Sequence record: MH675927.1
Source of the DNA: Escherichia phage vB_vPM_PD114
Length of the DNA: 64,000 nt
Direction: 5' to 3' (one strand)
The notes beneath the pieces are model-generated. The model was not told where the DNA came from and made no database searches. It saw only the letters and a program-made list of their open reading frames with translations. Both the position numbers and the translations under genes were made by a program. Below, one piece after another: positions 16,507 to 27,824 of the stretch (its first letter is position 1; each line of letters opens with the position of its first letter).

Positions 16507-17400
16507 ATGAAAGTTAGTATTCTGCATGGTGTTGACTGTTATGTTACTGATGTAGACGTTAAAGTGTTTACATTCTCTGGTGGAGAACAACATGTTCAAT
16601 TAGATACGAATCTATCAGGTTTCAATCATGCTACAGACAGAATCTTACTCACTTTAGAAGTAAGATCTGCTAAAGACTTGATGACTTTGGTTATGACTAA
16701 GAATGCATTGGACAATATGCTATATCATAAACCATATTGTGTTGATTTACTCATGTTGTATGTGCCGTATGCACGACAAGACAGAGTGTGTGAGCCTGGG
16801 GAAGCATTCGGAGTTAAAGCATTTGCTTCTATAATTAATTCATTAAATTTCTCACGTGTTATCGTTGCTGATCCGCATAGTGATGTTACTCCAGCAGTGT
16901 TTGACAGACTCTGTGTAATACCTCAAGAGGAGATTGCTTACGAAACTTTAAAGTGGAAGTTACGTATGGAGAATTTTGCTCTTGTTAGCCCTGATGGTGG
17001 TGCTCTTAAGAAAATATTTAAATTATCTAAGAAAATGTCTTTAGATGTGTTCTGTGCAGAGAAGGTTAGAGATACCGCAACAGGTGCTATTGTTCGTACA
17101 GACATTTCTGTACAGGATTTCAATAAGCGTAACCTGATGATCGTAGATGATATCTGTGATGGTGGTAGAACTTTTATTGAATTGGCTAAAGTGCTACGTG
17201 CTCGTAACGCAGGTAAGATTGAGTTATATGTTACACACGGTATCTTCTCTAAAGGTCTTAAAGAGTTGAGTGAACACTTTGACTGCATTCATTCTCTTAA
17301 TGTGTGGGAAGATAACATCCAAGAAGATTCCGGTGTTCTTGTTAAGAATCAGTCAGATTTGCAACAACAAATTGTATCTCCATACGTGTGGAATTTTTAA
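16507..17400 (+). CDS. PRPP-synthetase-family pyrophosphokinase; candidate ADP-ribose pyrophosphokinase (Adps) of NARP1
   Basis: PYARQDR, LVSPDGGALKK, LMIVDDICDGGRTF, VTHGIFSKG align with Prs motifs (PYFGYARQDRR, VVSPDIGG, VLVDDMIDTGGT, ATHPIFSG); RBS AGGAG; followed by NAMPT-like gene. Confidence 0.7.
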   Translation: MKVSILHGVDCYVTDVDVKVFTFSGGEQHVQLDTNLSGFNHATDRILLTLEVRSAKDLMTLVMTKNALDNMLYHKPYCVDLLMLYVPYARQDRVCEPGEAFGVKAFASIINSLNFSRVIVADPHSDVTPAVFDRLCVIPQEEIAYETLKWKLRMENFALVSPDGGALKKIFKLSKKMSLDVFCAEKVRDTATGAIVRTDISVQDFNKRNLMIVDDICDGGRTFIELAKVLRARNAGKIELYVTHGIFSKGLKELSEHFDCIHSLNVWEDNIQEDSGVLVKNQSDLQQQIVSPYVWNF

Positions 17401-17471: not shown

Positions 17472-19205
17472 ATGAATATTTTTGCACCTTTTGCTACTGA
17501 TTGGTACAAACCTGGTCACAAGCAGATGTACAATCAAAATACAAAACTCATTTTCTCTAATTTAACTCCTCGTAATGATAAAAACTTTGCACACTATGCA
17601 GATCGTGAAGCACGTGGTGTGATTGTTTTAGGTATTCGTCGAGCAGTCACTGATGCTCTTGTAACTATGTGGGATAGCTTCTTTAAAATGTCTCGTAGTG
17701 CAGCAGTAAATAAATTTTATCGTATGTCTAAAAATGCATTAGGTGCTTCTGCTCCTTCTGCTGAATGTTGGGGAGAATTGCACGATTTAGGTTATCTTCC
17801 GCTGGAAGTTCGATCTCTGCCAGAAGGTGTTTTGTGTCCTATTGGTGTTCCTGTGTTTACTGTGCATAATACTTTAGAAAAATTCTTTTGGTTAACTAAC
17901 TATGTGGAAACACTGTTGTCAGATGAAACTTGGAAGACAATGACTAATGCCACAGCAGCTTTTCAGTATAAGCGTATCGCTATGGCATATGCGATGGCAA
18001 CGTGTGATAATATTGATCACGTTAACTTCCAGTGTCATGACTTTAGCCTACGTGGTTTAAGTAATATCGAAGATGGTTATAAGAGTGGTATCGCTCACTT
18101 GGCATCGTTCACAGGAACAGATAATATTCTGGCTATTGAAACTGTGCATGACTATTATGGTATTGATTATGATCAGTTTGTTGCAGGTTCTATTCCGGCA
18201 ACAGAACATTCAGTAGCAACGACTAACATTGGAGCTATTGTTGAAGATCTGAAGAAACATTTCCCACATCTTAAAGATGATGTAGATGGGCTTCGTTATG
18301 TAGCAGAAAAAGAGTTTCTTCGTCGTTATATCGAAGAAATTGTTCCAGAAGGTTTTTGTTCATATGTAGCAGACTCTTATGACTATTGGGCTGTATTGAC
18401 TCGCATTCTGGTAGAATTGAAAGATTCCATTATGTCACGAAATGGTCGTCTTGTTATTCGTCCAGATTCAGGAGATCCGGTTAAAGTTGTTGCAGGATAC
18501 AATGTTGAATCTTTTGATAACTATGAAGACCTCTTAAATAATGGTATTGCGACAGCCACTGAAGTAGTTCATTTGGCTGATGTTAATAAGTATTACAATG
18601 TTCTTCAGGATTGCAGTGTTGCTGACTGTATTGATGAAACTTATGAGATTCCTTATTGTGAAGCAGTAGGTTCTATTCAAATCCTTTGGGAAGTGTTTGG
18701 TGGTACTATCAACCGAAAAGGCTACAAGGTTCTTGATCAGCATATCGGTATGATTTATGGTGATTCTATTACTGTTGAACGAGAACACGAGATCTTACGC
18801 CGACTGAAGAAGAAAGGTTTTGCAGCTTCCAATATTGTATTTGGTGTTGGTAGTTATACTTATCAGTTCAATACACGAGATACTTTTGGTTTTGCTGTTA
18901 AAGCAACAGGTAGTATTATCGGTGAACACGAAATTTTGGTAAGTAAGGAGCCTAAAACTGATCCTGGTAAACGCTCTGCAAAAGGTTTTATTAAGGTTGT
19001 TAAGGATACCAATGGTAATCTGTCTCTTGTAGATAATCTTTCTTTTAAAGATATCCAGGATGAAGACAATGAGTTACAAGTTATCTTCAAGGATGGTAAG
19101 GTTATTACACCACAAGTAGAAGGCCGTGATGAAACATTCACTGATATCCGCAACCGTGTTGACGTAGAGGTTCTTCGTACTATGGGAACCATCCAGGTTG
19201 ACTAA
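17472..19205 (+). CDS. nicotinamide phosphoribosyltransferase-family protein; candidate nicotinamide ADPR transferase (Namat) of NARP1
   Basis: 577 aa, NAMPT/NadV-like length and motifs (e.g. SIPATEHSVATT, GDSITVE); RBS AAGGAG; immediately downstream of the Prs-like gene. Confidence 0.7.
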   Translation: MNIFAPFATDWYKPGHKQMYNQNTKLIFSNLTPRNDKNFAHYADREARGVIVLGIRRAVTDALVTMWDSFFKMSRSAAVNKFYRMSKNALGASAPSAECWGELHDLGYLPLEVRSLPEGVLCPIGVPVFTVHNTLEKFFWLTNYVETLLSDETWKTMTNATAAFQYKRIAMAYAMATCDNIDHVNFQCHDFSLRGLSNIEDGYKSGIAHLASFTGTDNILAIETVHDYYGIDYDQFVAGSIPATEHSVATTNIGAIVEDLKKHFPHLKDDVDGLRYVAEKEFLRRYIEEIVPEGFCSYVADSYDYWAVLTRILVELKDSIMSRNGRLVIRPDSGDPVKVVAGYNVESFDNYEDLLNNGIATATEVVHLADVNKYYNVLQDCSVADCIDETYEIPYCEAVGSIQILWEVFGGTINRKGYKVLDQHIGMIYGDSITVEREHEILRRLKKKGFAASNIVFGVGSYTYQFNTRDTFGFAVKATGSIIGEHEILVSKEPKTDPGKRSAKGFIKVVKDTNGNLSLVDNLSFKDIQDEDNELQVIFKDGKVITPQVEGRDETFTDIRNRVDVEVLRTMGTIQVD

Positions 19206-19511: not shown

Positions 19512-19622
19512 ATGTCTACAGAAATTATTTTTGGCTTATCTGTTTTTATTGCTATTGTATCTTTTGTATGCGGTTATACACTAGGTTACAGATCAAGAAA
19601 AAATATTGTAAAAACTAGTTGA
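19512..19622 (+). CDS. very small hydrophobic peptide (36 aa), not in ORF track
   Basis: AAGGAAACAGT-ATG; MSTEIIFGLSVFIAIVSFVCGYTLGYRSRKNIVKTS. Confidence 0.25.
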   Translation: MSTEIIFGLSVFIAIVSFVCGYTLGYRSRKNIVKTS

Positions 19623-19648
19623 CAACATAGCTAGTTATTTGCTAAGAT
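19619..19648 (+). promoter_or_regulatory. sigma70-like promoter TTGACA-N18-TAAGAT
   Basis: Read directly. Confidence 0.4.
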
Positions 19649-19678: not shown

Positions 19679-19945
19679 ATGACAGAACGTACTTATGGTA
19701 AAGAATTGATTGAGAAGCACGTATTGATTGATAATAAAGGTGGAGCAATCTTTATTTTTGAACCTGAATCAGTTCTTACTGAAAACGAAAATGGTAGCGT
19801 TAGCCTTAAAACAGAAAGTTTGGTAATTGACTTCCTTGCTCTTCTGGATGAAATGGGGCTTCCGCACGAAGAAGAAGCAGCTATTGCTTTGATTACAGTT
19901 CTTCTGGAGAAACGCGAAGCTGGTGAAATGACCCAGTATGCTTAA
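19679..19945 (+). CDS. hypothetical protein (88 aa)
   Basis: AAAGGAGAAAACT-ATG; ORF track. Confidence 0.4.
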   Translation: MTERTYGKELIEKHVLIDNKGGAIFIFEPESVLTENENGSVSLKTESLVIDFLALLDEMGLPHEEEAAIALITVLLEKREAGEMTQYA

Positions 19946-19952
19946 TATTCAA

Positions 19953-20028
19953 GGTTCCATAGCTCACTGACGAGAGCGCACACCTCATAAGTGTCGAGGG
20001 CAGGGATTGTAACCCTGGGGAACCACCA
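19953..20028 (+). tRNA. tRNA-Met(CAT)-like, atypical T-loop
   Basis: Acceptor GGTTCC/GGAACC (position 7 mismatched), D-stem GCTC/GAGC, anticodon loop CTCATAA, T-arm CAGGG-ATTGTAA-CCCTG, encoded CCA. Hand-folded. Confidence 0.4.
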
Positions 20029-20059
20029 TTTAAAAGGAGATGCTATGCATCTCCTATAT

Positions 20060-20145
20060 GCAAGTGTGGTGGAATTGGTGATACACATTGTGCTTAAAAC
20101 GCAACGCTTAAATGATTGAGGGTTCGAATCCCTCCACTTGCACCA
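20060..20145 (+). tRNA. tRNA-Leu(TAA), class II
   Basis: Acceptor GCAAGTG/CACTTGC, anticodon loop CTTAAAA, long variable arm, T-arm GAGGG-TTCGAAT-CCCTC, discriminator A, CCA encoded. Confidence 0.6.
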
Positions 20146-20147
20146 AC

Positions 20148-20253
20148 GCCTAGTAGGGTATTTGGTAATTCCGAGGCCATCAAAGCCTGAAAAATATGTT
20201 AGACCGCTTTGTCTAACTAAATACGAAATATGGTTCGATTCCATAACTAGGCT
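20148..20253 (+). tRNA. tRNA-like element, unusually long (106 nt); possible pseudo-tRNA or tRNA with insertion
   Basis: Perfect acceptor pairing GCCTAGT/ACTAGGC and T-arm TATGG-TTCGATT-CCATA, but 74 nt between them with internal 7-bp hairpin GTTAGAC/GTCTAAC. Confidence 0.25.
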
Positions 20254-20285: not shown

Positions 20286-20314
20286 TTGACATTCACTTAG
20301 TTTTTTGTTATAGT
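20286..20314 (+). promoter_or_regulatory. sigma70-like promoter TTGACA-N17-TATAGT
   Basis: Read directly; ~12 nt upstream of next tRNA. Confidence 0.5.
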
Positions 20315-20325
20315 TACTGTGAAAA

Positions 20326-20407
20326 CGGGGTGTATCTCACCTGACTTCTAATCAGGCGTTAACCGAGTAATTGGAGTATGCAGGTTCGAATCCTGTCACC
20401 CCGACCA
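20326..20407 (+). tRNA. tRNA-like with Arg(TCT)-type anticodon arm, atypical D region
   Basis: Acceptor CGGGGTG/CACCCCG, T-arm GCAGG-TTCGAAT-CCTGT, CCA encoded; hairpin CCTGA-CTTCTAA-TCAGG only 7 nt after acceptor, no D-arm found by hand. Confidence 0.4.
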
Positions 20408-23089: not shown

Positions 23090-23172
23090 AGCTGGGTAGA
23101 TTTAAAAGAGTATGGTACTCAATATGGCTCCAAACCATAGATCAAGGGGTTCGATTCCTCACCTTGCTGCCA
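23090..23172 (+). tRNA. tRNA-Trp(CCA)-like, boundaries uncertain
   Basis: Anticodon arm TATGG-CTCCAAA-CCATA, T-loop TTCGATT, 3' CCTTGCT-G-CCA; acceptor pairing has a mismatch, D region long. Confidence 0.3.
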
Positions 23173-24770: not shown

Positions 24771-26009
24771 GTGGCAAGGAAACCTGTCAAACAATCTTTT
24801 GAAAATGTAGATATTGAAGTTAAAGCCCAACCTGGCAAACAAACACTAGCTATGGATCTTATGCCTGAAGTAATGATTTATGGTGGTGCGGCAGGTTGTG
24901 TTTCAGCAGAAACAGAATACTTAACAAGAGACGGTTGGAAACAAATAAGTGAATATGATGGTGAGGATATTTATCAATACAATCCAAGAAACAAACGTCT
25001 TGAATTAGTTACACCATCTTTTGTAGAATATGATGCTAAAGATAATCTGTATTGTATTACAAACGGAGTAGGTGTCTTCCAAGAATTAAGTATGGAACAT
25101 CGCTTTGTTTTCTACAAGAAGAAAAAATCCAAAAAACATTTTGAAATTCTTGTTGGGGATCTTATTGCACTACAGCAAGCAGGACACCCATTACGAGGAT
25201 ATATTGAAAATCCTTTTGGTAAACGTGTTCCGTTTAACATTCAAGGTAAACCTAGCACATATCTAAAAATTCATGAGGTAATGACAAGTGATGATAAGAA
25301 ATATTGCTTTGAAACTCCAAGCAGTTATGTCGTGTTTAGACGTGGCGATCACATCTTCGTTACTGGGAATAGCGGCAAAAGCCGTCTGCTACTTCTAAAA
25401 GCACTTAAATACGCATATAAAGATCCACTGTTTGGTGGTATTCTTTTCCGTAAAAATACAACAGCTTTACGTAAATCTGGTGGTTTGTTTACTGAAGCTA
25501 AAAAACTTTATCTACCATTAAAGCCTCACGTAAGAGAACAGGCTATGGAGATGGAGTTCAGAGCCACAAAAGGTGGCACACTTAAATTTGACCATCTTGA
25601 AAATGATAACGTAACTGCTGAAACTAACCATCAAGGTACACAGTATTCGATGGTAGGGTTTGACGAACTTACACATTTTACACAATATGAAATGCTGTAT
25701 CTGTTAGGGCGTATGCGTTCTGAATCAGAAACATCTTTTATGCTGTGTACTTGTAACCCTGATGCTGACAGTTGGGTGTTGAAATGGGTACTTCCTTATT
25801 TGGATGAAGCTGGTTATCCACGGGAAGATATGTGTGGCAAACAGCTATACTTTCTTATTGTGCAAGATGAACCAGTATTTGCTGAAACAGCAGAAGAGTT
25901 GAAAGAAAAGTATCCTGAAAACTGTTTTATGCAAAACCCAAACACAGGTGAAACAGTGGTTATTGAACCACAAACATTTGTGTTCATTGGTGGAACCATT
26001 AATCAATAG
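24771..26009 (+). CDS. terminase large subunit, ATPase domain (contains mini-intein in Walker A)
   Basis: GTG start after AGGAGG; YGGAAG|C...intein...N|SGKS reconstitutes P-loop GGAAGSGKS; Walker B SMVGFDELTHF; followed by portal gene downstream. Confidence 0.7.
   Translation: MARKPVKQSFENVDIEVKAQPGKQTLAMDLMPEVMIYGGAAGCVSAETEYLTRDGWKQISEYDGEDIYQYNPRNKRLELVTPSFVEYDAKDNLYCITNGVGVFQELSMEHRFVFYKKKKSKKHFEILVGDLIALQQAGHPLRGYIENPFGKRVPFNIQGKPSTYLKIHEVMTSDDKKYCFETPSSYVVFRRGDHIFVTGNSGKSRLLLLKALKYAYKDPLFGGILFRKNTTALRKSGGLFTEAKKLYLPLKPHVREQAMEMEFRATKGGTLKFDHLENDNVTAETNHQGTQYSMVGFDELTHFTQYEMLYLLGRMRSESETSFMLCTCNPDADSWVLKWVLPYLDEAGYPREDMCGKQLYFLIVQDEPVFAETAEELKEKYPENCFMQNPNTGETVVIEPQTFVFIGGTINQ
24897..25370 (+). 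mobile_element. mini-intein (158 aa) inserted in the terminase Walker A motif
   Basis: Starts CVSAETEYLTRDGW (block A-like, Cys1), ends ...DHIFVTGN followed by Ser (+1); flanking extein residues join to a canonical P-loop. Confidence 0.6.
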
Positions 26010-26063
26010 TGGCTTTGTGCAGCGATGCACATCGAATAACTTTGTTAATTGCTGGGAAGTCTA

Positions 26064-26092
26064 TTGACAAATAGATAATCAGCAGCTATAAT
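26064..26092 (+). promoter_or_regulatory. consensus sigma70 promoter TTGACA-N17-TATAAT driving the HNH endonuclease gene
   Basis: Exact -35 and -10 consensus hexamers, 17-nt spacer. Confidence 0.55.
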
Positions 26093-26124
26093 CACTTCTC
26101 CAAAAATATTAGTAGGAGAGTAAA

Positions 26125-26805
26125 ATGAAAAACTTAGATTTCATCGGATACCCGCATTATTGCGCCACATACGATGGTCGTATTTTTAGTTTATACACCC
26201 AAAAATTCCTAAGCGAAAATAAGATGCTTGGAGATTACAAGGGAGTAACCATTTGTGAAAATGGTAACAGGATAGAAGAATTACAGCACAGGTTGATAGC
26301 AAAAGCATTTGTGCCTAACCCTGAAAATAAGCCTTTTGTTAATCACAAAGATGGCAACAAACTTAATAATTGTGCAGACAATCTTGAGTGGACAACAGAA
26401 CAAGAGAATACTCTTCACGCTATGTCCACAGGGTTAAGACGAACAGAAGTCATAAATGACTACAGACCTATTCCAGACACTGTTGCTGTGGAAATTTGCA
26501 AACTGTTAGAGCAAGGATCACGTAACAAAGATATCTGTCAGATGTATAATGTGGCACAATCTGTTGTTAGTGATATAAAAGCTGGCAGAACATATAAAGA
26601 CATTTCACAAGACTTTAACTTTAGAAAAATACCCTCTTCCAACAGAATAAGTGAAGATAAAGTCTTAGGGATTTGTGAAAAGCTGCAAGAAAATATTCTA
26701 TCAATAAATAAAATAGCTAAAAAATACGGCGTAAGTTTTAATGTAGTTAAGAGTATTAAAGATAGGAAAACCTATACGTACTTATCTAATAACTACAATT
26801 GGTGA
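26125..26805 (+). CDS. HNH homing endonuclease (HNH_3-type with C-terminal DNA-binding region) inserted within the terminase gene
   Basis: VNHKDGNKLNNCADNLEWTTEQEN core motif; RBS GGAGAG; located between the two terminase reading frames. Confidence 0.65.
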   Translation: MKNLDFIGYPHYCATYDGRIFSLYTQKFLSENKMLGDYKGVTICENGNRIEELQHRLIAKAFVPNPENKPFVNHKDGNKLNNCADNLEWTTEQENTLHAMSTGLRRTEVINDYRPIPDTVAVEICKLLEQGSRNKDICQMYNVAQSVVSDIKAGRTYKDISQDFNFRKIPSSNRISEDKVLGICEKLQENILSINKIAKKYGVSFNVVKSIKDRKTYTYLSNNYNW

Positions 26806-27017
26806 TGTAGTTCAACGACTATCCCGAAAGGGAGTAGGGCAGAAGCAAATGCTGCTCGAAAAGCAAAGCATCTCTTAGGAGATGATGATATAGTCTATTC
26901 TGCACAGTGATGTGCAGCAGTTCATAAGAGAACGTGGAGTAGAGTTGCGACTACTCCAGAATAAAAAGATTTGATAACCCTGAACTAATAAGACTTAACC
27001 CTAAATACTTAGCTTCT

Positions 27018-27824
27018 TTGAAGGCTCAAACCGCCGTTAAGAGAGCACAGCTTTTAGATGGTTGTTGGTTTGCTCGTGCGCAAGAAGAGAGTTTCTTTAA
27101 CAGAGAATGGTTACACGTTATCAAGTTTAAAGATTTACCAAACAATCTTAAATATATGCGAGCGTGGGATAAAGCAGTATCTGTTCCAACAGAATCTTAT
27201 CGTTATCCTGACTACACAACATCTGTTAAAATGGCTAAAGACTCTGATGGAAATTATTACATTTTTGGTGATTATGATTATGATGCTCACGATGAAGGTA
27301 GTAAAATTTTTGGTAGATTCAGAAGACTACCAGGTGATCGAGATAATTTAATTCTAAACCAATGTAAGATTGATGGAGATGAAGTTACAGTTGTATTGCC
27401 AAAAGATCCTTCTGGTGCTGGTTTGATTGAATATACAGAATCAGCTAAAAAACTAATTGCTGAAGGGTTTGTTGTTAAACCAGACGCTATGCCTGGTAAC
27501 AAGAAAAAGTTACAACGCTTTATGCCATTTAGTAGTGCTTGTCAAAATGGTTTTGTTTATATTGTAGAAGAATCTTTCCCTAATAAAGAAACTCTTGATC
27601 ATTTCTATAAAGAGATGGAGTCGTTTAATGGAGAAAGATCTACAGCAACATTAAAAGATGATATTCCAGATGCTGCTGCATCTTGCTTTAATACTTTGTC
27701 AAAAGAACAGATGTTTAAAGCAGTAGCAATACCTTCTGCAACAAATGCATTAACAGGGTATGGTAAGATGGGTGGAAGATCAAGAAACTCTTTATCTTCT
27801 CCATATAGTATCAGAGGAAGATAA
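27018..27824 (+). CDS. terminase large subunit, C-terminal (nuclease-domain) part; true 5' end uncertain
   Basis: In the same frame as the N-terminal terminase ORF; frame open from 26943; track start is TTG; position between ATPase part and portal. Confidence 0.45.
   Translation: MKAQTAVKRAQLLDGCWFARAQEESFFNREWLHVIKFKDLPNNLKYMRAWDKAVSVPTESYRYPDYTTSVKMAKDSDGNYYIFGDYDYDAHDEGSKIFGRFRRLPGDRDNLILNQCKIDGDEVTVVLPKDPSGAGLIEYTESAKKLIAEGFVVKPDAMPGNKKKLQRFMPFSSACQNGFVYIVEESFPNKETLDHFYKEMESFNGERSTATLKDDIPDAAASCFNTLSKEQMFKAVAIPSATNALTGYGKMGGRSRNSLSSPYSIRGR

Follow-up and report, generated by a model that had tools for sequence, protein, structure and literature searches.

A tRNA-shaped element and its anatomy

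The stretch of DNA analysed here (the window) comprises 64,000 nucleotides (nt) of Escherichia phage vB_vPM_PD114 (sequence record MH675927.1), a Justusliebigvirus (phi92-like coliphage) with about 99 % identity to vB_vPM_PD06. Within its tRNA cluster a tRNA-shaped RNA element of 106 nt occupies positions 20148-20253 of the plus strand, running from G1 to a discriminator U. Comparative analysis shows this element to be a member of a conserved, phage-only family in which a tRNA L-shape is combined with an extra domain and an undersized, non-conserved anticodon loop.

All parts of the element lie on the plus strand. The 5' acceptor strand GCCUAGU (20148-20154; GCCTAGT in the DNA) pairs perfectly with the 3' acceptor strand ACUAGGC (20246-20252; ACTAGGC), which is followed by the discriminator U (20253), and the 3' strand is abutted directly by a T-arm, UAUGG-UUCGAUU-CCAUA (20229-20245), made up in the DNA of TATGG (20229-20233), TTCGATT (20234-20240) and CCATA (20241-20245). 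An earlier sequence-only reading of the window had described both features, together with a spacing of exactly 74 nt between the 5' acceptor strand and the T-arm (20155-20228) and a 7 bp hairpin within it, GTTAGAC (20198-20204), cgcttt (20205-20210) and GTCTAAC (20211-20217), and all of these are found as described. Following A8 and G9 (20155-20156), which lie between the acceptor strand and the D-arm, the D-arm (20157-20172) has a GGUA/UUCC stem with one U.U mismatch in this copy. The stem can be extended by U14-A21 and U15-A20 to 6 bp with a 4 nt loop, UGGU, which is the form that RNAalifold predicts; both pairs are invariant in 34 of 34 family sequences and so show no covariation. The D-loop G at 20165 pairs with the T-loop C at 20236 to form the elbow (G19:C56 in tRNA numbering).

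The anticodon-like arm (20174-20188), flanked by G26 (20173) and a further G (20189), has 15 nt rather than the canonical 17, with a 4 bp stem (AGGC/GCCU) and the loop CAUCAAA (20178-20184), in which an A takes the place of U33 and UCA occupies the anticodon position. A possible TCA-containing loop had also been proposed, and it is real in this lineage; it does not contain a conserved anticodon, since relatives have 6 nt loops such as CAUCCA and CCGCCA, or UUUUUAA. Between this arm and the T-arm lies a variable region of 39 nt (20190-20228), a length that in tRNAs is usually 4-5 nt and in class II tRNAs reaches about 21 nt. It is composed of a single-stranded 5' linker, AAAAAUAU (20190-20197), whose G-AAAA core hardly varies, if at all, within the family; the extra hairpin of 7 bp with the loop CGCUUU (20198-20217), which is the lineage-specific part of the insert; and a single-stranded 3' linker, UAAAUAC-GAAA (20218-20228), which reads AAUAC-AUAG in other lineages and whose AAUAC is invariant in 34 of 34 sequences. 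The insert as a whole (20189-20228) fits the family layout as GAAAAAUAU, a 7 bp hairpin and UAAAUAC-GAAA.

Across the family the RNA is about 97-107 nt long and shares the 7 bp acceptor stem, the D-arm, a T-arm with a UUCGAUU loop, the elbow pair and the discriminator U. The insert in the variable region measures 33-39 nt and consists of a G-AAAA(A)UAU linker, a hairpin of 4-7 bp and a (U/G)(A/G)AAUAC-AUAG linker. A hairpin is present at the insert site in all members, and its sequences are unrelated. RNAalifold predicts no pairing between the two conserved linkers, and neither it nor inspection of the alignment shows loops or linkers pairing with each other consistently. The anticodon-like and hairpin loops could form a kissing contact (UCCA with UGGA) only in Seunavirus-type copies, and such an interaction is not general. 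A hammerhead-like CUGA...GAAA arrangement in the element is absent from relatives, and no Rfam ribozyme matches. The discriminator U is followed by UCA, not CCA, in the window's lineage, by an encoded CCA (U-CCA) in most other lineages, and by CCC (U-CCC) in one close relative.

When judged against canonical tRNAs, the element has a perfect 7 bp acceptor stem, a 5 bp T-stem, a T-loop (UUCGAUU) that fits UUCRANY, and a covarying D-arm and elbow; it lacks a 5 bp anticodon stem with a 7 nt loop and U33, its variable region is of abnormal length, and it escapes standard detection. Departures from tRNA in the family also include A8 and U14 in place of the normal U8 and A14. At 15-16 nt, against 17, the anticodon-like arm is short throughout the family, and it takes three forms: in window-type copies, a 4 bp stem and a YAUCAAA loop whose position 33 is A; in Mydovirus and Seunavirus, a 5 bp stem and the 6 nt loop C[A/C/U][U/G]CCA; and in rV5-like phages, a 4 bp stem and the loop UUU[U/A]UAA. 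Because these loops differ between close relatives while the rest of the RNA is fixed, a single decoding role is, as far as the alignment can tell, not conserved in the family.

A covarying family in unrelated phages

The sequence-only reading had suggested checks with ARAGORN and Rfam, and these gave mixed answers. ARAGORN is silent on the element in its default, -ps and tmRNA modes. Its intron mode does return the same ends, but as a tRNA-Asn with an 18 nt 'intron' that is a forced fit with mismatched stems and was rejected; we know of no splicing of this type in bacteria. Rfam makes no call at its gathering thresholds and finds no match to RF00005 even at E values up to 10, the best match under lax filters being tRNA-Sec at 29.4 bits. 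The proposal that the element might be a tRNA carrying an insertion has fared better: ARAGORN recognises none of 21 family members at full length but 19 of them after in silico removal of the insert, and all four cloverleaf helices and the elbow covary.

A covariance model (model R2) was built from 13 homologs from Vequintavirinae, one Schitoviridae phage and uncultured viral contigs, with the window's own lineage left out. Searched against the window, it matches 20148-20253 end to end (model positions 1-106 of 106) at 80.4 bits (E = 8.7e-18), so that a covariance model does find a tRNA-like fold here, a point on which the sequence-only reading had made its proposal depend. The runners-up are a tRNA-Tyr (20.0 bits) and a tRNA-Ser (18.5 bits), ordinary tRNAs in the window scoring no higher than 20 bits. 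Standard pairs make up 98.0 % of the pair cells in a model-based alignment of 34 distinct sequences, and 16 of the 25 pairs have changes on both sides. The covariation score is 0.544, compared with at most 0.129 for structures slid by 1-3 columns, and none of 500 shuffles reaches it.

Covariation extends to every arm. All seven acceptor pairs are formed in 100 % of cells and five are compensatory; the T-stem is likewise 100 % paired with three compensatory pairs of five; three of the four core D-stem pairs covary; the outer pair of the anticodon-like stem changes from A-U to G-C; and in the extra hairpin each of the three modelled pairs covaries, with 89 % of cells paired. The elbow pair is G:C in 26 sequences and U:A in eight, broken in none, and the U is found in exactly the eight sequences that have the T-loop UUAGAUU. 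Because this tertiary D-loop/T-loop pair covaries perfectly, the tRNA elbow, and hence the L-shape, is on the comparative evidence under selection. Alignment with MAFFT followed by RNAalifold, in which the model was not used, gives the same fold. The single-sequence fold (-28.8 kcal/mol, z = -2.7, with 3 of 200 shuffles equally good) is only a modest excess over chance, and it is because the covariance evidence is decisive that we place the element beyond chance. Judged by these comparisons, the element is genuine, neither a chance fold nor a decaying tRNA.

A relaxed blastn search with the element core gave weak matches in Erwinia phages Hena1 and pEp_SNUABM_01 (Vequintavirinae), where the locus is 108 nt long, lies 2 nt after a tRNA-Thr and is annotated 'tRNA-TERM / tRNA-sup(tca)'. 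It also matched Salmonella phage UTK0002 (Schitoviridae), at a place in the tRNA cluster that carries no annotation. Used as a query in its turn, the UTK0002 copy brought the set to 226 records and recovers the window's own genus at 72 % identity (E = 4e-6). Members are found in Henunavirus, Mydovirus, Seunavirus and Vequintavirus (rV5-like), and in uncultured viral and metagenome contigs, all matches to the family being confined to large phage genomes and contigs; the motif of the 3' linker plus T-arm has no match in 185,579 bacterial and archaeal species, represented by one genome each. The Schitoviridae copy and a Vequintavirinae copy are 88 % identical, which points to horizontal spread of the RNA.

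The homologs in these Vequintavirinae genera are labelled tRNA-Lys, tRNA-OTHER or tRNA-Stop(tta), or carry no label. The Rfam generic tRNA model passes the rV5-type copy (35.5 bits against a threshold of 29) and does not match the copies of Ro1 and EspYZU15, and this accounts for the inconsistent GenBank labels. Overall, some homologs have no annotation, some lie under a hypothetical protein called on the opposite strand, and some are entered as suppressor, 'OTHER' or Lys tRNAs. The rV5 and BME3 genome papers give tRNA lists without this RNA, no description of it and no expression data on these phages were found in the searchable literature, and no family for it was found in Rfam. The family is thus previously undescribed, and standard tools miss or mislabel its members.

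Thirty phage records carry the element at 98 % identity or more, and the RNA is annotated in none of them; vB_vPM_PD06, muut and BME3 are among the phages that have it. The tally within Justusliebigvirus is 30 of 55 records with the element and 25 with it deleted, by two different events. In the phi92-type loss, common to 21 records, a deletion of 124 nt spares only 5 nt of the 5' acceptor strand; in the KKE7M-type loss, found in four records, a deletion of 99 nt between CTAG microhomologies spares the 3' acceptor strand. As these two independent deletions leave remnants of the element, it is, on the pattern of remnants, ancestral in the genus, has been lost at least twice and is dispensable. 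Carriers differ by seven substitutions in the 106 nt, four in loops, two changing Watson-Crick pairs to G.U and one breaking a pair in the extra hairpin; substitutions within the lineage fall mostly in the extra-hairpin loop. Just beyond position 106, on its 3' side, 8 of 20 positions differ in some relatives, so that conservation stops with the discriminator (20253). The genera that carry the RNA include those of therapeutic phages (Justusliebigvirus, Vequintavirus, Mydovirus and Seunavirus), and natural deletion variants exist.

The tRNA cluster and its surroundings

The tRNA cluster around the element, of 16-17 tRNAs, contains 15 tRNAs called by ARAGORN, one called by Rfam only and one low-scoring tRNA-Trp, and is flanked by NAD-salvage genes upstream and by terminase and portal genes downstream. 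The element follows tRNA-Met(CAT) (19953-20028, +; ARAGORN), which lies upstream in the same putative unit, and tRNA-Leu(TAA) (20060-20145, +; ARAGORN, Rfam tRNA 57.1 bits), which has an encoded CCA and is separated from the element by a spacer of only 2 nt (AC, 20146-20147). In nearly all homologs, too, the element starts about 2 nt past a ...CCA, directly behind another tRNA. A consensus scan finds a TG-extended promoter-like site, TTGACA-18-TAAGAT, at 19619-19648 (+), a candidate start of a unit comprising a small open reading frame (ORF), tRNA-Met, tRNA-Leu and the element; judging by its position, this site would serve the element's transcription. A second promoter-like site, TTGACA-17-TATAGT (20286-20314, +; 11 of 12 consensus matches in the scan), is kept in phages phi92 and muut; it opens the next unit and marks the downstream boundary of the element's own.

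The gene with which that next unit begins (20326-20404, +) is itself a non-canonical tRNA. It has an acceptor stem, an anticodon arm (loop CUUCUAA, anticodon UCU, Arg) and a T-arm; in the place of a D-arm it has 7 nt (UAUCUCA), and its variable region of about 21 nt contains a small hairpin, CCGA-GUAA-UUGG, that resembles a displaced D-arm. Rfam scores it as a tRNA at 40 bits with the D-arm deleted and default ARAGORN misses it; it is kept in phi92 and muut, and some records label it tRNA-OTHER or tRNA-Undet. The tRNA-Trp(CCA) candidate (23095-23172, +), detected by ARAGORN at a relaxed threshold only and not reported by Rfam at the gathering score, may be another non-canonical member of the cluster.

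Directly upstream of the cluster are genes for a PRPP-synthetase-like protein (16507-17400) and a NAPRTase/Nampt-family protein (17472-19205, +); NAD-salvage gene pairs of this kind are used by phages against NAD-depleting defences. Downstream, the large terminase gene is split (24771-27824, +) into a Terminase_6N ATPase part (24771-26009), an HNH endonuclease (26125-26805) and a Terminase_6C nuclease part (27018-27824). HNH or homing-endonuclease genes are also found beside or inside other tRNA clusters, and in Raoultella phage Ro1 an endonuclease gene ends 5 nt before the element, where a ...ACCAAT tRNA 3' end is left over. These arrangements suggest that endonucleases drive the shuffling of tRNA-cluster cassettes, this RNA included.

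The minus strand has an ORF of 100 amino acids (19942-20244) antisense to tRNA-Met, tRNA-Leu and most of the element, and several GenBank relatives have a minus-strand coding sequence (CDS) for a 'hypothetical protein' placed over the element; these CDS annotations are almost certainly spurious. Read on the minus strand, 20217-20198 together with 20197-20190 scores as an intrinsic terminator, a hairpin followed by ATATTTTT, and the same layout is found in all family members. We treat this score as a by-product of the A-rich tract that precedes the extra hairpin, there being no minus-strand gene nearby.

Proposed role and relation to known RNAs

Phage tRNA clusters are now seen as part of an arms race with bacterial tRNA-cleaving defences, one in which non-canonical members are invisible to standard annotation. 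The retention of a tRNA shape, the loss of the decoding loop and the spread between unrelated phage families suggest that this RNA functions as a tRNA mimic. As a class, we consider a processed, non-decoding tRNA mimic to be the likeliest identity of the mature element, with a probability of about 0.55; for any particular target the figure is much lower. By position and by analogy with tRNA biology, the element would be co-transcribed with tRNA-Met and tRNA-Leu, cleaved by RNase P at its 5' end (G20148) and trimmed at its 3' end to the discriminator, and in the window's lineage, in which UCA replaces CCA, it would be completed by the host CCA-adding enzyme. The resulting stable mimic would keep the surfaces that tRNA-binding proteins read (the acceptor/T minihelix, the elbow and the 3' end) without a functional anticodon loop, and would occupy or divert a tRNA-recognising factor. 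Because the features read by proteins are kept and those read by the ribosome are lost, the element probably binds such a factor. The most plausible setting would be the phage-host tRNA conflict, either with tRNA-cleaving defence nucleases or with a tRNA-handling enzyme, in which the inserted domain might supply specificity and the function would be accessory rather than essential; the accessory status, horizontal spread and fast-changing loop of the RNA fit a conflict centred on tRNA (PMC10264068, PMC11464382, PMC11555353).

Several considerations weigh against this proposal. The transcription, processing and stability of the family rest on analogy. A decoy for anticodon nucleases would be expected to display an authentic anticodon loop, which the abnormal loops of this family are not. 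Primary sequence is most strongly conserved in the single-stranded linkers, which would fit a specific contact of the insert with RNA or protein at least as well as general tRNA mimicry. The covariation counts come from model-fitted alignments of related sequences and are somewhat inflated, and the two extra D-stem pairs, being invariant, carry no covariation support. That 45 % of the genus has lost the element shows that the phages can do without it in the laboratory and says nothing about function.

It is unlikely that the element is instead a functional decoder used by the ribosome, namely a UGA (opal) suppressor or tRNA-Sec-like species with the anticodon UCA, charged by host SerRS through the long extra arm or by GlyRS through G1:C72, C2:G71 and U73. 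This explanation takes at face value the suppressor labels of Hena1 and pEp_SNUABM_01, the tRNA-Stop(tta) and tRNA-Lys labels of rV5-like homologs and the passage of the rV5-type copy over the generic tRNA threshold. It also draws on a likeness to tRNA-Sec (RF01852), the best Rfam match of both the element (29.4 bits) and the Hena1 homolog (39 bits, lax filters), a match driven by the predicted D-arm of 6 bp with a 4 nt loop and by the C-UCAAA loop with its UCA; the long extra arm is a further point of resemblance. G1:C72, C2:G71 and U73 are glycine identity rules, and the variants with 6 nt loops all keep NCC (UCC/GCC, glycine anticodons) together with them. Both tRNA-Sec scores are nevertheless below the gathering threshold of 47, and the acceptor and T-stems add up to 7+5 = 12 bp, not the 13 bp (8+5 or 9+4) that defines tRNA-Sec, so that the model alignment deletes two acceptor pairs. 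The element has A33 for the near-universal U33, a 4 bp anticodon stem in an arm that is 15-16 nt long in the family rather than 17, and a discriminator U instead of G, and its extra arm is flanked by unpaired linkers of 8 and 11 nt within a variable region beyond that of any class II tRNA. UCA is kept in tRNA-Sec, whereas relatives of the element carry UCC/GCC or UUU/UAU at this position, a variation between close relatives that is incompatible with one decoding role; this family is, moreover, absent from the cellular genomes searched. The insert-free core is not particularly similar to phage tRNA-Gly or to other tRNAs of the cluster, and an origin from tRNA-Gly, suggested by the same glycine-like features, was rejected; a search for an ancestor with the same acceptor stem returned 27 matches among ordinary-sized tRNAs, many identities being represented, and indicated none. 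Stop-codon recoding was rejected on the phage's standard code (51 TAA, 7 TGA and 5 TAG stops; 84 % coding), in which TGA is rare but normal; behind most TGA stops a further stop comes 0-7 codons later, with no sign of a read-through design. The 'suppressor tRNA' labels in rV5-like phages, Henunavirus and related phages should not be taken to show stop-codon read-through.

Three further explanations put the weight elsewhere. In one, which we regard as doubtful, the tRNA shape is a chassis providing RNase P/CCA processing and nuclease resistance, and the inserted domain is the functional module, a small regulatory RNA or a protein-binding aptamer. The two linkers (G-AAAA... and AAUAC) are indeed the longest invariant single-stranded stretches while the helices around them covary, the hairpin is always present with a sequence that differs between lineages, and the anticodon-like loop is free to vary. 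The analysis found no target or partner, however; the second half of the window's 3' linker, UAAAUACGAAA, does not follow the family consensus, AAUACAUAG, and a base-pairing seed there would not be conserved; loop-loop or linker-linker pairing is not consistently found; and the conservation of the elbow pair and D-arm exceeds what a processing handle needs. That the element is a drifting tRNA pseudogene with an acquired insertion, the sense in which it had been called a possibly degenerate tRNA, is highly improbable. Standard tRNA finders do miss it, 25 of 55 genomes of the genus have lost it with no obvious harm, its D-stem has a U.U mismatch, and CCA is not encoded in the window's lineage; yet it is conserved across three phage groups, in Stephanstirmvirinae, in four Vequintavirinae genera and in a Schitoviridae phage, as well as in uncultured contigs, and each of its helices, like the tertiary pair, shows compensatory changes. 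Its linkers are invariant and its conservation is sharply bounded at the RNA 3' end, identities of 72-88 % exclude recent copies of one sequence, and covariation effectively refutes the idea. There is scarcely any prospect that the locus is not a plus-strand RNA gene at all and owes its features to the minus-strand ORF or terminator: the ORF exists, several records place a CDS there and a scan does flag a terminator-like site at 20217-20198 (-), but the ORF runs antisense through tRNA-Met and tRNA-Leu, conservation tracks RNA helices and not codons, and, since every neighbouring gene is read from the plus strand, a minus-strand terminator would have no transcript to act on.

The non-decoding mimic that we favour can be set beside several known kinds of RNA. 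Like class II tRNAs (Leu, Ser and bacterial Tyr), it has a hairpin arising from the variable region whose presence is conserved and whose sequence is free, and tRNA-Tyr and tRNA-Ser are the next best matches to model R2 (18-20 bits). It differs from them in having 39 nt in this region where they have about 13-21, in its long, conserved single-stranded linkers and abnormal anticodon arm, and in a 60-bit gap to true members of its own family. A relationship to tmRNA was rejected: the tmRNA mode of ARAGORN is silent, pair 3:70 is C:G and not G3.U70, the Rfam tmRNA match in the window falls on tRNA-Leu and not on the element, and a tmRNA-like mini-ORF in the extra hairpin (AUG UUA GAC CGC UUU GUC UAA) is not conserved in relatives.

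Bacterial Y RNA/YrlA tRNA-like domains and viral tRNA-like structures do not decode; they imitate the tRNA elbow and the acceptor/T surfaces and are acted on by tRNA enzymes. YrlA has its RNA termini in the Ro-binding stem rather than in an acceptor stem, and the tRNA-like structures of plant viruses are genome 3' ends built on pseudoknots; no Rfam family of either kind matches the element. Phage tRNAs that counter tRNA-targeting defences offer another comparison, these being accessory genes of tRNA clusters whose value lies in the phage-host tRNA conflict, as with the T5 tRNA-Lys against PARIS, tRNA-Tyr against retron Eco7 and anticodon-loop variants against anticodon nucleases (PMC11464382, PMC11555353, PMC10264068). 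The present family is, as they are, dispensable and horizontally spread, with a fast-evolving anticodon-like loop; the difference is that they are bona fide decoders replacing cleaved host tRNAs, while the element would be an implausible decoder.

A further parallel is species 1 RNA (rnaC) of phage T4, whose tRNA cluster encodes two stable RNAs of unknown function, rnaC and rnaD, with rnaC unexplained after 50 years (PMC3014915, PMC9697503, PMC12685909). Rfam has no family for either. A model of rnaC (model R1; T4 at NC_000866 70908-71046 plus homologs from six other Tevenvirinae genera, seven in all) supports its fold with 22 of 44 pairs compensatory, including the repair of two acceptor-stem U.U mismatches. 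Both RNAs are small, belong to phage tRNA clusters and lie directly after a tRNA, and both have a 7 bp acceptor-type stem stacked on a canonical T-arm, an AGG after the 5' acceptor strand and a AAAAAUAU tract before a hairpin of 7-10 bp. In the rnaC family the stems covary but a hairpin loop of 6 nt is invariant, reading CGUCAA or, in Yersinia phage TG1, CAUCAA, and the C-R-U-C-A-A loop is common to that family and the window element (CAUCAAA, 20178-20184); this sharing may reflect chance or a common target. On these likenesses one might take the element for a diverged homolog of rnaC, which we consider very improbable: model R1 scores it at 14.9 bits, level with ordinary tRNAs (13-17 bits), and model R2 does not match rnaC. 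The motifs are not collinear, the A-rich tract preceding the CRUCAA hairpin in rnaC and following it in the element family; in rnaC a single hairpin of about 60 nt closed by AGG/CCU replaces the separate, covarying D- and anticodon-like arms; and rnaC is 137-140 nt long and confined to T4-like phages. By these model comparisons rnaC is an analogue, and not a demonstrable homolog, of the element. A speculative idea, to which we give little credence for now, is that the two are independent non-decoding phage mimics whose C-R-U-C-A-A loop sequesters or diverts a factor of the host that recognises tRNA (a defence nuclease or a synthetase, for example), or that they are charged, non-ribosomal aminoacyl carriers. 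Should they prove to be two independent solutions of this sort, the presence/absence polymorphism of the phi92 genus would already supply isogenic material with which to find out what this class of phage RNA, unexplained since the 1970s, does.

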